A stretch of DNA of 64,000 nt. It comes from Candidatus Onthoplasma sp. GTDB lineage: Bacteria; Bacillota; Clostridia; Christensenellales; UBA1242. A program made the position numbers and the translations under genes. This document shows, piece by piece, positions 57,183 through 64,000 of the stretch; position 1 is the first letter of the stretch, and every line of letters begins with the position of its first letter. Where the stretch lies: NCBI GenBank assembly GCA_045633705.1, contig JAZQYV010000005.1:24561-88560 (forward strand). The letters are read 5' to 3'. The notes under the pieces were generated by a model. That model worked only from the letters and a program-made list of their open reading frames with translations, had not been told where the DNA came from and ran no database searches.

Positions 57183-58025
57183 ATGATACCAAAATTTGGA
57201 GTTGCGGGTGTGCCTGTAAATTATAAAGGCAAACCGAAAGATTTTTATGATTGGCTAAAGGGTATGAATTTGAATGCGTACGAAATTCAATGTACTTTTG
57301 GCTTCAAGATGAGTGACAAAAATAAAGAGCTTGTTTTAAAAGCTCAACAAGACGGTTTTTATATAAGCATGCACGGACCCTATTATATTAATCTTGGAAG
57401 TGTAAACGGGCAGGTTGTAGAGCGCAGTATTGACATATTAACCAAAGGTGTGGAGCTTGCTAAAAGCGTTAATTGCAATCGCATTATTTTCCACCCAGGC
57501 GGTGGCCATGAAAACACTGAAGAAGGCAGAGCTCAGGCGATTAAACGCATAATAAATCATTTAAACAGCATATCATCAAGCATTGATATGGGAGATGTGC
57601 GATTTTACCCGGAAATTGGCGGAAAAACAGCCAATTTAGGCTCGTTAGATGAAATTATTGAAATATGTAAAAATTGTCAATATGCCTATCCTTGTATTGA
57701 CATTGCACATCTTCATGCGCGTGAAGTTGGTTCAATTACATCAAAGGACATTTTAAGGGCAAAATTAGAGCATTTAAAGCAAGAGTTGCCTGATAAGTTT
57801 AACAAAGTTCATTTCCACGCCTATACAATCAATTATGGAGATAAGGGCGAAATTAAACACTTAGTGCATGGAGAAAATATGCCGGATGGAAGTGAAGGGT
57901 TGCCAAATCTTGATTGGTTTGTAGAATTGTTGCACGAAATGAATATTGAACCTTGGGTTATCAGTGAGGCTAGCGATAGTCAAGAACAGGGTGCAAAATA
58001 TATGCGAGATAAGTATTTTGAGTAA
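57183..58025 (+). CDS. Endonuclease IV-like TIM-barrel protein
   Basis: HGPYYINL, FHPG, E..GK, DIAHLHAR, HFH, GE..H and ISE metal ligands. Confidence 0.85.
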   Translation: MIPKFGVAGVPVNYKGKPKDFYDWLKGMNLNAYEIQCTFGFKMSDKNKELVLKAQQDGFYISMHGPYYINLGSVNGQVVERSIDILTKGVELAKSVNCNRIIFHPGGGHENTEEGRAQAIKRIINHLNSISSSIDMGDVRFYPEIGGKTANLGSLDEIIEICKNCQYAYPCIDIAHLHAREVGSITSKDILRAKLEHLKQELPDKFNKVHFHAYTINYGDKGEIKHLVHGENMPDGSEGLPNLDWFVELLHEMNIEPWVISEASDSQEQGAKYMRDKYFE

Positions 58026-58034
58026 AATATATTT

Positions 58035-58865
58035 ATGGAAAAGTTAGAGTTTAAAGTAACTGAAAAAAGAGATTTAGGCAAGGAGTTAAGAAAGCGATTG
58101 CCCCTTTTTTCTAATTATCAAATAGAAAAGTTGTTTAAAAATAAAGATATAAAGGTTAATGGTGTTAGAAAAACAAAACCTTGTAAACTTGAGCCAAATG
58201 ATATTGTAGAAGTTTATTATCAAGGAGTAAACGACGAGCCTTGGTTTAGTATTGTGTTTGAAGACGATAATATAGCAATTGTAAATAAGCGCGCCGGGAT
58301 TGAAGTGGTAAGTGAAGATGACCGCAACCTACTAGACGTGTTAAAAATGCAATATCGAGAGCTTTATGCTGTTCATCGCATTGACCGAAATACTGAAGGC
58401 CTTGTCATATTTGCAAAAAATGAAATTGCAGAAACTGAATTGTTAAAAGCCTTTAAAGAGCGCACTATTATTAAGAAATATGCTTTAAAAGTTAAAGGCA
58501 AGGTTCAAATTGAGGCAATTAAGCATAAACTATATTTGAAGAAGCTTGCAGATGCATCAAAAGTGATTGTATCAGAGGTTAAAACTAGTGGCTACGAAGA
58601 GATTGTAACACGCTTTAATTTAATCAAATATGAAGACAATAACACTATTCTTGAAGCAGAACTTGTTACTGGCAAAACTCATCAAATACGTGCGCATATT
58701 TCATACTTTGGCCACCCTATAATAGGCGATGGCAAATATGGTGTGGGAGATAATCAGCAAATGTGCTTAACAGCATATTATATACAGTTTAAATTTGGTA
58801 AAAAATCAGTGCTAGAATATTTGAATGACAAATCGTTTGAAATACTTCCAACGTGGTGGAATTAA
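58035..58865 (+). CDS. RluA-family pseudouridine synthase
   Basis: HRIDRNTEG, TGKTHQIRAH and PIIGDGKYG. Confidence 0.92.
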   Translation: MEKLEFKVTEKRDLGKELRKRLPLFSNYQIEKLFKNKDIKVNGVRKTKPCKLEPNDIVEVYYQGVNDEPWFSIVFEDDNIAIVNKRAGIEVVSEDDRNLLDVLKMQYRELYAVHRIDRNTEGLVIFAKNEIAETELLKAFKERTIIKKYALKVKGKVQIEAIKHKLYLKKLADASKVIVSEVKTSGYEEIVTRFNLIKYEDNNTILEAELVTGKTHQIRAHISYFGHPIIGDGKYGVGDNQQMCLTAYYIQFKFGKKSVLEYLNDKSFEILPTWWN

Positions 58866-58914
58866 CTTCTTTAAACTTGACAAAAGACTATAAATATATT
58901 ATAATACTTGCATT

Positions 58915-59418
58915 ATGAAAGAAGATTTGATTAAATTTCCAAGCGATAAAGATATTGAAAAGTATATGAAAAATTGTATATACAAATTTAATTTATCCGA
59001 AGTGATTGATAAAATGCCAATCACCGCCAAAAATGACAAACAGATTTTGTTATACAAAACGTTTCCAAAAGATAAAGCAAGGTGCCGTTATTATATTATT
59101 GATATGAGTGGGCAAATTTTAGGTGTGATTGGGGCACACATTTTAGGTGAATCCGCATCATTAGATGCTGAAATATTGCCAGATTTTAGAAACTGTGGTG
59201 TTGGGGTGTCTGCGGTTAACGCTATTGAAAGAGATATTTTTGAATCTAGTGATGAAAGATTTAGCAAAATTAATTCACTAATAATTGAAACAATCCACGC
59301 CCCAGCTATTTCGGTTGCAAAAAAATGCGGCTTTAAGAGCGATTATAAGTATTTATATGTTTTAACGAAATCTGATTATTTTGCACAAAAAAATCAATGT
59401 GATAAAACGTTACTATAG
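58915..59418 (+). CDS. GNAT family acetyltransferase-like protein
   Basis: ILPDFRNCGVG motif A and AKKCGF; perfect TTGACA(58877)-17-TATAAT promoter. Confidence 0.65.
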   Translation: MKEDLIKFPSDKDIEKYMKNCIYKFNLSEVIDKMPITAKNDKQILLYKTFPKDKARCRYYIIDMSGQILGVIGAHILGESASLDAEILPDFRNCGVGVSAVNAIERDIFESSDERFSKINSLIIETIHAPAISVAKKCGFKSDYKYLYVLTKSDYFAQKNQCDKTLL

Positions 59419-59546
59419 TTATATAAAATAATAGTAAAGCAAAAATTAAATTATAGTAGGGCAGCAATGCTCTATTTTTTTTGGTTAAAAAGATTTTTGA
59501 AAGATACAAAGATTTATCTAAACAAAAATATACTATTGGCAATATT

Positions 59547-59703
59547 GTGGCACGACTAGGTGCAAATAGAGAATAAGTATGGTAAACTACGCGAAACAAA
59601 CTCTAACGAGTTTTAAAATGCTAAAGCATTTAGTGGCAATAGATGCCATATTTCGCAAGTTTTGAATTACGTCAGAAATTATTAAATGCCACTAAAGTGC
59701 CGC
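59547..59703. ncRNA. Candidate structured non-coding RNA (unassigned)
   Basis: Closing stem GTGGCAC/GTGCCGC, central A-rich bubble, inner GCGAAA/TTTCGC stem enclosing three mini-hairpins. Confidence 0.45.
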
Positions 59704-60042
59704 TTATAATTTCTTCCTAAATTATAAAATAAGATTAATTATGATAAAATTAGGCTAATTGTGGTTGTTTTGCGAATAGATGCAAACAGAAAATATATAT
59801 AAAAACACATGTAAGCGTAGAAATCTTTAAAAAATATAATAAAAAGTATGGGAAAGCTGTAAAATTAATTGACATTTGAGGTGAGATGGGGTAATATATA
59901 CAAGGAATCGAAAGATTGCATATAATGATATATATATTTGTACAAAAAACTTAAAAATTTTAAAATTATTTAAAAAATTTGTAAAAAATAGTTGACATTG
60001 TGTTAAATTTATAGTATCATAAATAAGTCAGCATATGAATAG

Positions 60043-60118
60043 CGGGGTGTAGCGCAGTTGGTAGCGCACGTGGTTTGGGACCATGGGGCCGGGAGTTCGA
60101 GTCTCTTCACCCCGACCA
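60043..60118 (+). tRNA. tRNA-Pro(TGG)
   Basis: CGGGGTG acceptor, loop TTTGGGA, CCA. Confidence 0.96.
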
Positions 60119-60126
60119 TCTCATTT

Positions 60127-60203
60127 GGACCTTTAGCTCAGTTGGTTAGAGCAACCGGCTCATAACCGGTCGGTCCGCGGTTCGAGTCCGTGAAGGTCCA
60201 CCA
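60127..60203 (+). tRNA. tRNA-Ile2/Met(CAT), probably Ile2
   Basis: Anticodon loop CTCATAA; GGACCTT acceptor typical of Firmicute tRNA-Ile2. Confidence 0.9.
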
Positions 60204-60260
60204 TTTAATTTATTTAATGGTTTAAATGAGAATATAAATGCTGAAAATCAAGGCAAATAT

Positions 60261-60337
60261 GGCCCGGTAGCTCAGTTGGTTAGAGCGCCAGCCTGTCACG
60301 CTGGAGGTCGAGAGTTCGAGCCTCTTCCGGGTCGCCA
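60261..60337 (+). tRNA. tRNA-Asp(GTC)
   Basis: Loop CTGTCAC, GCCA end. Confidence 0.96.
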
Positions 60338-60339
60338 AT

Positions 60340-60415
60340 GCCTCGATAGCTCAGTCGGTAGAGCAAAGGACTGAAAATCCTTGTGTCGTTGGTTCGATTC
60401 CGACTCGAGGCACCA
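60340..60415 (+). tRNA. tRNA-Phe(GAA)
   Basis: Loop CTGAAAA, ACCA end. Confidence 0.96.
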
Positions 60416-60468
60416 ATCACAAGATTTTCAAATCGAGTGCAGGACTAATACCGAATAGTCCTAAATAT

Positions 60469-60543
60469 GCTAGTGTGGCTCAACGGTAGAGCAGCTGACT
60501 TGTAATCAGCAGGTTGGGGGTTCGATTCCCTTCACTAGCTCCA
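60469..60543 (+). tRNA. tRNA-Thr(TGT)
   Basis: Loop CTTGTAA, TCCA end. Confidence 0.96.
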
Positions 60544-60547
60544 ACAT

Positions 60548-60633
60548 GGGAAGATTGCAGAGCGGCCAAATGCTACGGACTGTAAATCCGTCGTCTTATG
60601 ACTTCGATGGTTCGAATCCATCTCTTCCCACCA
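60548..60633 (+). tRNA. tRNA-Tyr(GTA)
   Basis: Loop CTGTAAA, long variable arm, ACCA end. Confidence 0.96.
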
Positions 60634-60634
60634 A

Positions 60635-60678
60635 GTTAATAAAAATAAGAGGTTGTGATGCCTCTTATTTTTATTAAC
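60635..60678 (+). terminator. Terminator hairpin after the tRNA operon
   Basis: GTTAATAAAAATAAGAGG / CCTCTTATTTTTATTAAC perfect 18-bp IR. Confidence 0.8.
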
Positions 60679-60679
60679 A

Positions 60680-60845
60680 ATGATATGTCCGTTGGACATG
60701 ATATGGCTTAGGCAATGATATATTTGCAAGCAAATATGATATGTTGCTTGTTGCAACATGGAGGACATGTCATATCATTTTGCCTAATGGCAAAATATCA
60801 TTTGATTAAATCAAATATCATTATGAACGTAGTGAATAATATCAT
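60680..60845. repeat. Symmetric ATGATAT x4 / ATATCAT x4 ladder with interspersed mini-hairpins
   Basis: ATGATAT at 60680, 60698, 60715, 60736; ATATCAT at 60772, 60795, 60815, 60839; spacers largely self-complementary. Confidence 0.9.
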
Positions 60846-60898
60846 CAAAATTGCATTAAATTATTGTAATATGCTTAATTTTATGATATAATATGGAT

Positions 60899-61243
60899 AT
60901 GAAAGATAATATATTATTAGAAAAATCAAAAGAGTTTGCGATTGAAATTATAAATTTATGCGATAATATAAAAAATTGCTCCATTATAACTAATCAATTA
61001 TCAAGAAGTGGAACAAGTATTGGCGCAAATATTCACGAAGCACAATATGCGCATGGTAAAGCAGACTTTATTGCCAAACTTGAAATTGCATTAAAGGAAT
61101 GTAGCGAAACAGAGTACTGGTTAGAACTTTTAGTAAAAACTCAAAAAATAAATGAAAAAGTTTTTAAAGATTTAAAGAATGACGCTGGAAGCATTAGGAG
61201 AATATTAATCAAATCTTGTACAACAGCAAAAGATAATAAGTAA
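60899..61243 (+). CDS. Four-helix-bundle protein (TIGR02436 / 23S rRNA IVP / Avd-like fold)
   Basis: KS..FA..II, QLSRSGTSIGANIHEA, DFIAKLEIALKE..ETEYWLELL; TTGTAA-17-TATAAT (with TG extension) ends 6 nt before ATG 60899 (alternative start 60893). Confidence 0.9.
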   Translation: MKDNILLEKSKEFAIEIINLCDNIKNCSIITNQLSRSGTSIGANIHEAQYAHGKADFIAKLEIALKECSETEYWLELLVKTQKINEKVFKDLKNDAGSIRRILIKSCTTAKDNK

Positions 61244-61260
61244 TTTAAAGGATAAGATAA

Positions 61261-61578
61261 ATGGATAGTAAAAAACTTATAGATCTAATCAAGTTAAAAG
61301 ATAAATATGCAATTGCTTTAATGGACTATTATATCGATAAAGGTGTTAATACAAAAGATTTGCAAAGATATATTGATAGTATATGTGATGAGTGGGCTAG
61401 AACTTTTATAGCAACGTATCACAATAACCTTACAGAAAAAGAGGTTCAAATAGCTATTTTTAGGTATTTAGATGGCATTGGAGCAAAACAATCACATTCT
61501 GGCAAACGTTTTAGTGAGGCATTGTATAGACAAATGCACAATTACGTAAATAATCAAAATTCGGAATTGTCTAAATAA
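61261..61578 (+). CDS. Hypothetical protein
   Basis: AAGGA RBS, 17 bp after the four-helix-bundle gene; 105 aa. Confidence 0.65.
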   Translation: MDSKKLIDLIKLKDKYAIALMDYYIDKGVNTKDLQRYIDSICDEWARTFIATYHNNLTEKEVQIAIFRYLDGIGAKQSHSGKRFSEALYRQMHNYVNNQNSELSK

Positions 61579-61628
61579 TTTTAAAATTTTGTTGACAATA
61601 CGGTTAAAGTGGAGTATAATAAAAATAT

Positions 61629-61658
61629 ATGAAGAAATGTTGCTGTAACTTAAAATAG
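61629..61658 (+). CDS. Putative cysS leader peptide MKKCCCNLK
   Basis: ATG AAG AAA TGT TGC TGT AAC TTA AAA TAG, 8 nt after a perfect TTGACA(61592)-17-TATAAT(61615) promoter. Confidence 0.7.
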   Translation: MKKCCCNLK

Positions 61659-61714
61659 ATTAGGTACAAGTATTTGTACACATTTTTGAGTGGTGCAATC
61701 AAGATTTAAATATC

Positions 61715-61749
61715 ATAGGTCAAGAGAACACGGCTCTTGACCTATTTTT
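61715..61749 (+). terminator. Attenuator terminator in the cysS leader
   Basis: ATAGGTCAAGAG / CTCTTGACCTAT 12-bp perfect stem with T-run, between promoter and cysS. Confidence 0.8.
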
Positions 61750-61751
61750 AT

Positions 61752-61785
61752 AGTGAAAAATGAATAATTATAGATGCTTTGATTT
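61752..61785 (+). repeat. Partial heptamer-repeat element in the cysS leader
   Basis: AGTGAAA AATGAAT AATT ATA GATGCTTTG. Confidence 0.55.
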
Positions 61786-61835
61786 TTAAATTTAAACAAA
61801 AAACATTTTAAATCATATATAATAAGGAGAATAAT

Positions 61836-63275
61836 ATGAGATTTTATAATAGTTTAACTAGGCAAATTGAAGAATTTAAGCCAGTAGATGAGAAAGTTGT
61901 AAAAATGTATACTTGCGGGCCTACAGTGTATCATTTTGCACATATTGGCAATCTTCGTAGTTATATTATGGAAGATGTGCTTGAAAAAACACTACGTTTT
62001 GTAGGGTATAATGTGGTTAGATGTATGAATATTACCGATGTAGGACACTTAACTGGTGATAGCGATGATGGCGAAGACAAAATGCTACTTGGTGCTCAGC
62101 GTGAAAATAAGACCGTATTAGACATTGCGCGTTTTTACACCGAAAAATTCAAGGAAGATTGTGCTGATTTAAATATTAAATGGCCTGAAATTGTTGTACC
62201 TGCTACAAGTTGTATTGACGAGTATATTAAGATGATTGAAGTGTTACTTGAAAAGGGCTTTGCGTATCAATCAAATGGAAACGTATACTTTGATGTAAGT
62301 AAGTTGGACAATTATTATACACTAACAAATCATAAGGCTGACGATATGCTTGTAGGCGTGCGTGATGGGGTAGAGCAAGATGATGGTAAACGCAACCAAG
62401 CAGACTTTGCGCTATGGTTTACCAAATCTAAGTTTGCCGACCAAGAGCTTAAATGGGATAGCCCTTGGGGAATTGGTTACCCAGGCTGGCATATTGAATG
62501 TAGCGGTATTTCGTGCAAGCACCTTGGCGAATATCTTGATATTCATTGTGGTGGGGTTGATAATAAATTCCCACATCATACCAACGAAATTGCGCAAAGT
62601 GAGGCATATCTTGGCCATAAGTGGTGTAATTACTGGTTCCACGTTGAGCATTTAAATGGCGAAAATGGCAAGATGAGTAAAAGTGAAGGCGGTTTTGTAA
62701 CAGTCGATAGCTTAAAGGAAAAGGGATACAGCCCATTAGCATATAGATTTTTCTGCTTGATGTCACACTATGCAAAACCGTTGGTATTTAGTTTTGACCG
62801 CCTTGATGGCGCAGTTTCGGCTTATAATAAGCTAAAAGAAAAAACTTTGGCATTAAAACGTGAAGCGATAAAAACTCACAATCTTAATTCGGACAACGAA
62901 CTATTAGATATGATAAACGAAAGTGTATCGGATGAGGCAGAAGAGTTTGTTGTTAGATTTAAAGATGCTATACAAGATGATTTAAATACATCTATGGCAA
63001 TCACTGTGTTGTATGACGCGCTAAAAGCAAATATTATTGATGAAGATAAGTTATATTTAATTAATGAATTTGACAAAGTGTTAGGTCTAGATTTATTAAA
63101 AGAAGATAAAATTGCAGATGAAATTCCGCAAGAAGTGAAAGCTTTGGCTCAAATTCGCTGGCAAGCAAAACTTGACAAAAACTGGGCAGTTGCAGATGAA
63201 ATGCGTAATAAAATCACAAGCCTGGGATATCAAATATTAGATAGTAAAGAAGGTTATGAGATTAAAAAGATGTAA
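61836..63275 (+). CDS. cysS: Cysteine--tRNA ligase
   Basis: YTCGPTVY, HIGN, PGWHIECS, FPHH.NE and KMSKS. Confidence 0.98.
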   Translation: MRFYNSLTRQIEEFKPVDEKVVKMYTCGPTVYHFAHIGNLRSYIMEDVLEKTLRFVGYNVVRCMNITDVGHLTGDSDDGEDKMLLGAQRENKTVLDIARFYTEKFKEDCADLNIKWPEIVVPATSCIDEYIKMIEVLLEKGFAYQSNGNVYFDVSKLDNYYTLTNHKADDMLVGVRDGVEQDDGKRNQADFALWFTKSKFADQELKWDSPWGIGYPGWHIECSGISCKHLGEYLDIHCGGVDNKFPHHTNEIAQSEAYLGHKWCNYWFHVEHLNGENGKMSKSEGGFVTVDSLKEKGYSPLAYRFFCLMSHYAKPLVFSFDRLDGAVSAYNKLKEKTLALKREAIKTHNLNSDNELLDMINESVSDEAEEFVVRFKDAIQDDLNTSMAITVLYDALKANIIDEDKLYLINEFDKVLGLDLLKEDKIADEIPQEVKALAQIRWQAKLDKNWAVADEMRNKITSLGYQILDSKEGYEIKKM

Positions 63276-63457
63276 CAATATATATTGTATTTAAGTTTAT
63301 ATATACACAATATATTGTTTGTGCTTAATATAAAATTTAATTAACTATAAACACTTATAAAAACTACAAAACAACCTAAAAAGAGCAAGGATTAGACAAA
63401 ACCTGCTCTTTTTTTTGCGTTTTTATATGCTACAATATTTAGCAGTTGGAGGGGGAA

Positions 63458-63769
63458 ATGCAAATTAAAACAAAAGTATATAATAATTCGCTATACGTGC
63501 TATTAATAGGCGAACTAGATGAGTGCTGTGCGCCATATGTGAGAACAACTTTGGATAATATATTTGAAACTGAAAAGCGATTTAACAAGGTTATAATTGA
63601 CCTATCACAGCTTGATTTTATGGATAGTACAGGTATTGGCGTTATGATTGGTAGATATAAAAAATTGCAATCAAGAAACATACCAATATATATCATTAAT
63701 CCATCACATCAAGCGGAAAAAATATTTAAAATGTCAGGACTGTATGATATTATGCCTAAAATTAGTTAA
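63458..63769 (+). CDS. spoIIAA: Anti-sigmaF antagonist SpoIIAA
   Basis: GELDE and FMDSTGIGVMIGRYK (STAS domain); precedes spoIIAB. Confidence 0.9.
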   Translation: MQIKTKVYNNSLYVLLIGELDECCAPYVRTTLDNIFETEKRFNKVIIDLSQLDFMDSTGIGVMIGRYKKLQSRNIPIYIINPSHQAEKIFKMSGLYDIMPKIS

Positions 63770-63864
63770 GTAAATAAGTATAAGTGGTACAAGCAAGGGT
63801 ATAAAACAATAAATTTTACAAATGCTAGAACGGCTAATTTGCCTAAAATAAATAAGGAGATTGT

Positions 63865-64000
63865 ATGAAAAATAAAATAGAAATTAAATTTAAATCGTTG
63901 CCAGAAAATGAGGCGTTTGCACGTACTTGTGTGTCGGCATTTTGCCTTAAATTAAATCCGACACTTGATGAAATTGGAGATATAAAAACAGCTGTAAGTG
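63865..64000 (+). CDS. spoIIAB: Anti-sigmaF factor SpoIIAB (3'-truncated by window edge)
   Basis: MKNKIEIKFKSLPENEAFARTCVSAF..LNPTLDEIGDIKTAVS. Confidence 0.92.
   Translation, partial: MKNKIEIKFKSLPENEAFARTCVSAFCLKLNPTLDEIGDIKTAVS

Follow-up and report, generated by a model that had tools for sequence, protein, structure and literature searches.

A leader that precedes cysS, the gene for cysteine-tRNA ligase, was analysed in a 64,000-nucleotide (nt) stretch of contig JAZQYV010000005.1 from Candidatus Onthoplasma sp.; this whole stretch is referred to below as the window. The leader contains a promoter, a short open reading frame (sORF) of nine codons with three consecutive Cys codons (MKKCCCNLK) and an intrinsic terminator. 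We consider it very probable (about 0.85) that it is a classical ribosome-mediated transcription attenuator, which senses charged tRNA-Cys and controls cysS. Four features by which such attenuators are recognized were found: a short ORF at the 5' end, tandem cognate codons, a terminator before the gene, and mutually exclusive helices that overlap the footprint of a stalled ribosome. An earlier reading of the window from its letters (the original prediction) had proposed a near-leaderless poly-Cys leader peptide with a terminator/antiterminator switch and no T-box. This central proposal was supported by conservation of the sORF, synonymous variation of its Cys codons, homologues bearing a Shine-Dalgarno (SD) sequence, covariation in the helices and a negative Rfam search.

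In the proposed mechanism, transcription would begin at the ATG of the sORF or 2 nt before it, and the sORF would be translated without an SD. When Cys-tRNA-Cys is plentiful, the ribosome would finish the peptide and leave, and region 1 would pair with region 2 around a small hairpin (P2), forming the anti-antiterminator P1 (coordinates in Table 1). With P1 formed, the terminator would fold and transcription would end some 85 nt short of cysS. If Cys-tRNA-Cys runs low, the ribosome would stall at codons 4-6 and cover region 1, so that region 2 and the stretch following it would pair with positions 61716-61736 of the terminator. This antiterminator would prevent formation of the terminator, and RNA polymerase would read into cysS. 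We infer the transcription start, the translation of the sORF, the stalling, the kinetic order of folding and the response to cysteine.

The window belongs to a genome (G000) of 1.12 Mb, 93% complete, in a clade titled Candidatus Onthoplasma. In it, a 245-nt spacer separates cysS from the ORF that ends at 61578. The perfect sigmaA promoter of the original prediction was confirmed at 61592-61620, and it is the only 12/12 match within 61200-63500, a range in which promoter-like sites overall occur at chance level (13 observed versus 12.1 expected). The leader ATG (61629) was likewise found 8 nt downstream of the -10 hexamer, followed by the three consecutive Cys codons TGT TGC TGT (61638-61646), which are codons 4-6 of the nine. 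The strong terminator expected before cysS is also present: its stem has 12 pairs, five of them G-C, with a 7-nt loop and a TTTT tail, and it lies 90 nt before cysS. It sits 75-90 nt upstream of the cysS SD, which is unpaired in the fold. Runs of the type (TGY)3 occur 189 times on both strands of the 1.12-Mb genome whereas composition predicts about 48; it is thus context and conservation, and not the Cys triplet, that carry the case.

CysS was found in 59 of 61 relatives. Among 29 readable cysS upstream regions, four (G000, G003, G022 and G028) share the whole set of promoter, sORF, hairpin and terminator. The remaining regions have either a short leader behind a plain promoter, a cysE-like ORF upstream, or a T-box. 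With a covariance model (R1) derived from the four leaders, the leader, here called type A, was identified in 8 of the 64 genus genomes, in each case immediately upstream of cysS. The -35 hexamer TTGACA is kept in all eight copies. The encoded peptides are MKKCCCNLK and MKKCCCNLK(I/V), and MKRCCCNLK in G077, where the Cys codons read TGT TGT TGT. Between the -10 hexamer and the ATG there are 6 nt in G068, 7 nt in G077 and 8 nt in the other six genomes, and so there is no room for an SD in any type A copy.

An exact codon scan for MKKCCCN (ATGAARAARTGYTGYTGYAAY) over one genome per GTDB species returned 76 loci. Thirteen of them lie 130-230 nt before cysS, six being type A copies and seven belonging to a second form, type B. 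The public titles of the metagenome-assembled genomes that carry type B name Clostridia, Lachnospiraceae and, once, Gastranaerophilales; G230, one of these carriers, falls within the family of the window. Type B leaders consist of a promoter, an 18-25-nt leader, an SD, an sORF reading MKKCCCN-stop, a hairpin and a terminator, after which cysS follows, and a GGA/GAGG SD lies 8-11 nt before the ATG in 7/7 copies. Since types A and B can be aligned along their whole length, we regard them as homologous. Start and stop codons of the sORF are kept in 15/15 copies (8/8 of type A and 7/7 of type B). Three adjacent Cys codons stand before cysS in all 15, with both TGT and TGC occurring among the copies at each of the three, and the Lys codons vary among AAA, AAG and AGA. 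A search for Cys-codon runs upstream of cysS in relatives had been suggested as a check of the original prediction, and they proved to be conserved (8 of 64 genus genomes and seven type B loci). The 63 MKKCCCN loci that do not adjoin cysS were set aside: 21 were inspected and rejected as chance, and the other 42 were judged by position listing alone. Sixteen of the inspected loci, including a recurrent Nostoc sORF (MKKCCCNSLGSASGR) and Herpetosiphon, are out of frame within long ORFs (e.g., ...EEMLLQQ...) or have no gene nearby, and the remaining five, with seven codons, have no promoter or terminator context.

A second covariance model (R2), built from types A and B together, found only G230 among 150 other genomes of the family; three weak matches (E about 0.005) were plain terminators with neither a Cys sORF nor cysS. 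The family was also surveyed independently of similarity to the leader, and the 147 genomes with a CysS match yielded 140 upstream regions from 138 genomes. The nine genomes outside this survey were G196 and G203 (<35 nt upstream), G112 and G222 (partial matches), and G014, G180, G221, G230 and G000. An sORF with at least two adjacent Cys codons is present in 21 of the 140 regions, the sequences of four of these 21 being inspected, and a terminator-like hairpin follows two of the sORFs, in G183 and G153. The G153 candidate was rejected, as its sORF starts with TTG and is probably just the last part of the preceding gene. The other (G183:C2, L239:249-400), from another genus of the family, is a third, unrelated and leaderless Cys leader before cysS (type C), in which TTGACT, a 17-nt spacer and TATAAT are followed after 6 nt by the ATG of MKTIICCSK-stop (nine codons) and by a terminator. 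Region 2 of this leader has two possible pairing partners, namely the Cys codons and the terminator's 5' arm and loop. In G135:C1 (L224:300-420), from the same genus as G230, three type B elements survive, namely the hairpin, region 2 (UUUCAGUUGUCUAA) and the terminator. Region 1 is gone, and the sORF, MIRHCYLY, retains a single one of the three Cys codons. This leader is apparently a decayed type B copy and, since region 1 is gone, its antiterminator would form constitutively. Nothing of the attenuator kind was seen in the rest of the 140 surveyed regions. In a CysS tree, the type A carriers split into two distinct clades of the genus, the sister clade of either one having no leader, and type B forms one clade, a distribution that fits an old origin with repeated loss, or transfer.

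The minimum free energy (MFE) fold of the leader has -32.5 kcal/mol (z = -4.1), and none of 200 shuffled sequences was equally stable. It contains the pairing of region 1 with region 2 that the original prediction had named 1:2, and this pairing is conserved. The P2 hairpin nested in P1 has an invariant stem and a loop of 3-7 nt across the eight genus copies, and type B leaders have an equivalent hairpin of different sequence. P2 stabilises P1. It is speculative that P2, followed by a U run at 61683-61687, also acts as a pause hairpin, since a NusG-type TTNTTT pause motif after P2 was not conserved among the type A and type B copies compared. P2 was also considered as a DNA operator, and this was rejected because the spacing of its arms varies by 3 nt among the genus copies.

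Folds were then constrained by masking the bases under a ribosome stalled on the Cys codons and by cutting the transcript off after the first 5 nt of the terminator's 3' arm. Under these constraints one common alternative hairpin, the candidate antiterminator, folds in 8/8 genus copies. In the window genome it consists of the pairs GAGU:GCUC (61688-61691 with 61733-61736), GUG:CAC (61693-61695 with 61729-61731), UC:GA (61699-61700 with 61724-61725) and GAUUUA:UAGGUC (61703-61708 with 61716-61721). One side is thus region 2, and the other is the 5' arm of the terminator, its loop and the first bases of its 3' arm. As these elements are used, the antiterminator excludes both P1 and the terminator: positions 61729-61736 are common to antiterminator and terminator, as region 2 is to P1 and antiterminator. 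The energies of P1 with P2, antiterminator and terminator are -14.5, -13.9 and -17.4 kcal/mol, respectively. Type B has a plainer antiterminator of the same design, in which CAGUUGUCUA pairs with UAGAUAACUG.

Pairing was counted on an alignment of 15 sequences (eight of type A and seven of type B) and compared with slid controls. For P1 and the terminator together, 95.1% of the cells are paired (slid controls 35-49%) and seven pairs changed on both sides, six of them in the terminator. Taken separately, the P1 helix (columns 19-29 with 64-74) is paired in 92.1% of the cells with one pair changed on both sides, and the terminator in 98.2%, with both bases replaced in 6 of its 11 pairs between type A and type B. 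The antiterminator core (columns 68-74 with 117-123) reaches 92.4%, with three pairs changed on both sides and slid controls at 30-69%. In one copy (L076), a synonymous change from TGC to TGT in the third Cys codon is matched by a G to A change on the opposite strand of P1, which is the pattern to be expected of a helix that overlaps a translated frame.

The original prediction had proposed a different antiterminator, 2:3, in which UUUUUGA (61683-61689) pairs with UCAAGAG (61720-61726). The letters are indeed complementary, with two G-U pairs; 81.9% of the cells pair over the 15 sequences versus 44-63% in slid controls, and one column pair (68-107) changed on both sides, switching from G-C to C-G between types A and B. 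However, this helix has an energy of only -1.1 kcal/mol versus -13.9 for the hairpin described above, G022, G068 and G077 have lost its single G-C pair, just four consecutive pairs are left in type B, and it was chosen in none of the constrained folds of the eight genus copies. We therefore do not regard it as a meaningful antiterminator, and an attenuator of the same kind working through 2:3 seems improbable.

An RNA-only element (a riboswitch, or a tRNA-binding or protein-binding RNA) with an incidental, untranslated sORF was also considered. In its favour, translation of the sORF is a prediction, type A has no SD, and as P1 takes in much of the sORF, the helix by itself would keep that sequence conserved. 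Against such an element, the Cys codons (columns 12-18) are mostly outside the conserved helix and yet always encode Cys, with synonymous changes at all three. The invariably kept start and stop codons and the properly spaced SD in every type B copy also speak for translation, and the unrelated type C leader again puts Cys codons in a nine-codon ORF before cysS. Moreover, no Rfam family matched the leader, the leader lacks a conserved UGGN box that could bind the tRNA 3' end (GUGGUG becomes GUUGUG in G068 and G077), and sORFs with cognate codons also occur upstream of ileS and tyrS (see below). We consider an element of this kind highly improbable.

Hardly credible, finally, is an arrangement without regulation, in which the hairpin merely ends transcripts arriving from upstream or begun at the strong promoter and cysS has its own promoter downstream of 61750: the 85 nt between terminator and cysS are A+T-rich with weak promoter-like hexamers (e.g., TTTAAA-17-AATAAT at 61807-61835, 9/12), and in most relatives cysS has a plain promoter and a short leader, but the 9/12 site ends at the cysS ATG and therefore could not supply an SD, only about 45 nt separate terminator and SD in G003 and G028, the leader stays with cysS while the upstream DNA differs among genomes, and a conserved and covarying antiterminator and anti-antiterminator would be left without purpose.

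Initiation without an SD was assessed by counting, over the genome, promoters within one mismatch per hexamer that precede ORFs of at least 60 amino acids (aa). The ATG of 21 such ORFs lies exactly 6 nt after the -10 hexamer, compared with 1-6 ORFs for any of the other spacings between 4 and 12 nt. Judged by these spacings, leaderless mRNAs look routine in this genome, and the 21 ORFs that start 6 nt after a good -10 make leaderless initiation of the sORF plausible. The spacings in G068 (6 nt) and G077 (7 nt) would fit a true leaderless start.

Several observations weigh against the proposed attenuator or qualify it. In the window genome the ATG lies 8 nt after the -10 hexamer and not at the 6 nt typical of its leaderless genes; because of this spacing, a 2-nt leader is likely, and the transcript would begin AUAUG. 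A ribosome positioned at the stop codon falls short of region 2, so that termination with plentiful cysteine depends on prompt release of the ribosome, which is assumed. A stall at codon 4 leaves a peptidyl-tRNA of three residues, which may drop off. Two public RNA runs (word shares 0.07 and 0.19) gave only fragments of the cysS genes of relatives, mostly less than 90% alike and over conserved parts; a single contig covering the leader (61613-61728) came from a run of unspecified kind, and the runs contained no starts, ends or bridging pieces. The leader is absent from 56 of the 64 genus genomes and from most of the family, and it is therefore dispensable. The central pair of the antiterminator (columns 72-119) is mismatched in five of the eight type A copies, and an outer pair is lost in three. 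Finally, the 15 sequences represent about three to four divergence groups, and related sequences can beat every shuffle; the covariation counts thus reflect few independent events. Owing to the few independent lineages and the central mismatches, we are less sure of the identity of the antiterminator than of the overall mechanism, and hold only that region 2 probably pairs with the 5' arm, loop and first 3'-arm bases of the terminator.

The cysteine economy of the organism was also examined. Its genome carries one tRNA-Cys(GCA), and Cys accounts for 1.39% of the codons. Queries in this genome, 93% complete, gave no match for cysK (TIGR01139), and for cysE (TIGR01172) a best match of 18.7 bits, with a cut-off of 210.65. 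On these two queries the organism looks like a cysteine importer, and for such an organism it would be sensible to raise cysteinyl-tRNA synthetase when charging falls.

Table 1. Position of the elements of the cysS leader in the window
Element	Position	Strand	Basis or remark
-35 hexamer TTGACA	61592-61597	+	12/12 promoter match, 17-nt spacer
-10 hexamer TATAAT	61615-61620	+	part of the 12/12 promoter match
Predicted transcription start, A at 61627 (2-nt leader) or A of ATG	61627-61629	+	inferred from the usual 7-nt distance after -10
Leader sORF, MKKCCCNLK and stop	61629-61658	+	ATG AAG AAA TGT TGC TGT AAC TTA AAA TAG
Region 1, 5' strand of the anti-antiterminator P1	61639-61655 (61639-61643 and 61648-61655)	+	overlaps Cys codons 1-3 and the Asn-Leu-Lys codons
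P2 hairpin GUACAA-GUAU-UUGUAC, nested in P1	61664-61679	+	MFE fold; conserved
Region 2, 3' strand of P1	61684-61699 (61684-61691 and 61695-61699)	+	common to P1 and antiterminator
Candidate antiterminator hairpin	61688-61736	+	constrained folds, covariation, -13.9 kcal/mol
Intrinsic terminator, stem-loop 61715-61745 and U tail to 61749	61715-61749	+	-17.4 kcal/mol
cysS Shine-Dalgarno AAGGAG	61824-61829	+	read from the sequence, 6 nt before the ATG at 61836
cysS, cysteine-tRNA ligase, 479 aa	61836-63275	+	TIGR00435, 423.7 bits (cut-off 340)

In the textbook view, the aminoacyl-tRNA synthetase genes of Firmicutes are under T-box control. An Rfam scan by E-value (E <= 10) of positions 58000-64000 found no family in 61560-61835 and no T-box anywhere in that range, as the original prediction had expected, and the cysS leader is thus not a member of the T-box family RF00230. 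In two other families of the same order, sub-threshold T-box matches lie directly before cysS, with 83.6 bits (E 1.6e-17) and 40.3 bits (E 2.4e-6), the gathering score being 93. The T-boxes of L017 and L028 had been missed at the Rfam gathering threshold and were recovered by the E-value run. No T-box was detected by a regular expression in the 140 family cysS upstream regions, and no family at E <= 0.01 by an Rfam scan of 20 of them. Most cysS genes within the family of the window have no recognisable leader. The idea that the leader stands in place of a T-box consequently holds in comparison with the two other families, and does not describe the window's own family. Elsewhere in the genome, the RF00230 search gave only three T-box-like matches, of 76-90 bits and just under the gathering score. 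They lie at C12:132254-132491, C8:40604-40827 (minus strand) and C17:15323-15530 and precede a 379-aa ORF and pheS, valS, and a 169-aa ORF and thrS, respectively.

When the genome was scanned for leaders made of an sORF and a terminator, two more were found, both outside the window. The first precedes ileS (TIGR00392, 733 bits; G000:C4:35990-36157, L119:91-258). It has TTGACA, a 17-nt spacer, an extended -10 element (TG-n-TAAAAT), an ATG 11 nt later without an SD, the sORF MKTINANIIIINIIA, with seven Ile in 15 codons, and a terminator. Nine genus genomes have conserved this leader: G063 and all eight that carry the cysS leader, the window genome included. Their -10 elements precede the ATG by 7-11 nt, and the peptides are MKTINANIII(I)NII.A and MKTIIANIIIIINT, with a truncated form, MKTINANIIIII, in G063. 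The second leader, before tyrS (TIGR00234, 394 bits; G000:C19:50540-50892, L120:90-444), contains a promoter, the SD AAGGAG, the sORF MKNLFALNSYYYYYK, with five Tyr codons in a row, and several sites with a hairpin and a U run.

To a wider picture drawn from these results we give an even chance. In this clade of gut Clostridia with genomes of about 1 Mb, leaderless mRNAs would be routine, and attenuators with cognate-codon mini-ORFs, several of them leaderless or nearly so, would have taken over at least three synthetase genes, cysS (CCC), ileS and tyrS (YYYYY), leaving T-boxes only at pheS, valS and thrS. The cysS leader would be one of at least three unrelated or diverged solutions within the family, lost repeatedly and decayed in one genome. 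If this is true, the family offers a natural series for studying the replacement of T-boxes and leader peptides by one another, and a leaderless ORF of nine codons, with a stall after a mere tripeptide, would be enough for amino-acid sensing.

The classical leader-peptide attenuators are those of trpL, hisL and pheST in Proteobacteria. The cysS leader shares with them the three-state logic (anti-antiterminator, antiterminator and terminator) and the cognate codons in a short ORF. In trpL, a ribosome at the stop codon covers region 2, whereas here it cannot. In addition, the 3' strand of the antiterminator is here the loop of the terminator and the first bases of its 3' arm, and the decision would therefore fall very late. 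Within Firmicutes, a published precedent for a leader peptide where a T-box is usual comes from bacilli, where His leader peptides take the place of T-boxes ahead of hisZ and hisS paralogues, as described in the parts concerned of Naville and Gautheret, 2010 (PMC2965389). Both the classical attenuators and these His leaders have an SD, whereas type A has none. A 2005 survey (PMC1262725), in its relevant sections, states that no aminoacyl-tRNA synthetase gene of Firmicutes is under classical attenuation, and describes Cys leaders without terminators in Actinobacteria.

Cys leaders before cysS are already in print. The uORFC-8-2 motif of Rhodobacterales, from the Breaker laboratory (RNA Biol 2021; PMC8632094), is, according to the passages concerned, a conserved upstream ORF (uORF) with tandem Cys codons, followed by a terminator (stem and U run) directly before cysS. 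The logic proposed there, stalling at Cys codons that leads to read-through, is the same, and both systems are predicted. That motif is alphaproteobacterial and usually has two Cys at uORF positions 14-15, whereas the present leader is from Clostridia and has three at positions 4-6 of nine codons; nor is the motif described as leaderless in those passages. By Cys position and lineage the leader is not a member of uORFC-8-2, and it had no Rfam match at E <= 10, the presence of an Rfam model for the motif being unchecked. In Deinococcus deserti, a leaderless leader peptide of 10 residues with two Cys precedes cysS (PMC4007540). As far as the relevant passages go, the likeness extends to the regulated gene (cysS), a leader peptide at the transcription start, a length of about 10 codons and the proposal of attenuation. 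The phylum is different, however, and D. deserti has two Cys codons and a start mapped by differential RNA sequencing (dRNA-seq), as against three Cys codons and a predicted start here; this comparison is by description, and no alternative structures are given in the passages concerned.

The mycobacterial polycysteine sORFs of the Ms5788A type are also leaderless with consecutive Cys codons, and the parts consulted of that report (10.1101/834739) describe experimental tests by which they sense the supply of Cys-tRNA in cis. They act on translation by sequestering a downstream SD, without an intrinsic terminator, whereas here there is a terminator and the SD is unpaired, so that the leader does not belong to these translational attenuators. 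According to the same passages, they have about 30 codons with the Cys run at the 3' end and control cysteine-biosynthesis operons, not cysS. The original prediction knew of no described case for a clostridial cysS, and a full-text literature search indeed found no Cys leader before cysS described in Clostridia, although the supplementary tables of PMC8632094 and PMC2965389, outside that search, might list some. Since such leaders are published for Rhodobacterales and Deinococcus deserti, the idea is new only for Clostridia, and the mechanism is not new.

The most interesting aspects are in our view the leaderless start and the companion leaders at ileS and tyrS. Together, the cysS, ileS and tyrS leaders point to a tiny-genome lineage of Clostridia that would use the ribosome itself as the sensor, and those of cysS and ileS, without a ribosome-binding site, would link amino-acid sensing to leaderless translation outside Actinobacteria and Deinococcus. 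The combination of a promoter, an ATG, a run of cognate codons and two competing helices that share the terminator loop also offers a signature for the annotation of such sORFs, which are usually left unannotated.

In the surroundings of the leader, the Rfam E-value scan detected a cluster of six tRNA genes at 60043-60630 (+), about 1 kb upstream. Between this cluster and an ORF at 60893, positions 60678-60847 contain two Gut-1 matches, of 33.9 and 25.6 bits, both below the gathering score of 50. Downstream of cysS there are an ORF of 107 aa at 63446-63769 (+) and the start of another at 63865-63999 (+), which we take to resemble a sporulation pair of anti-sigma-F antagonist and anti-sigma factor (SpoIIAA/SpoIIAB).

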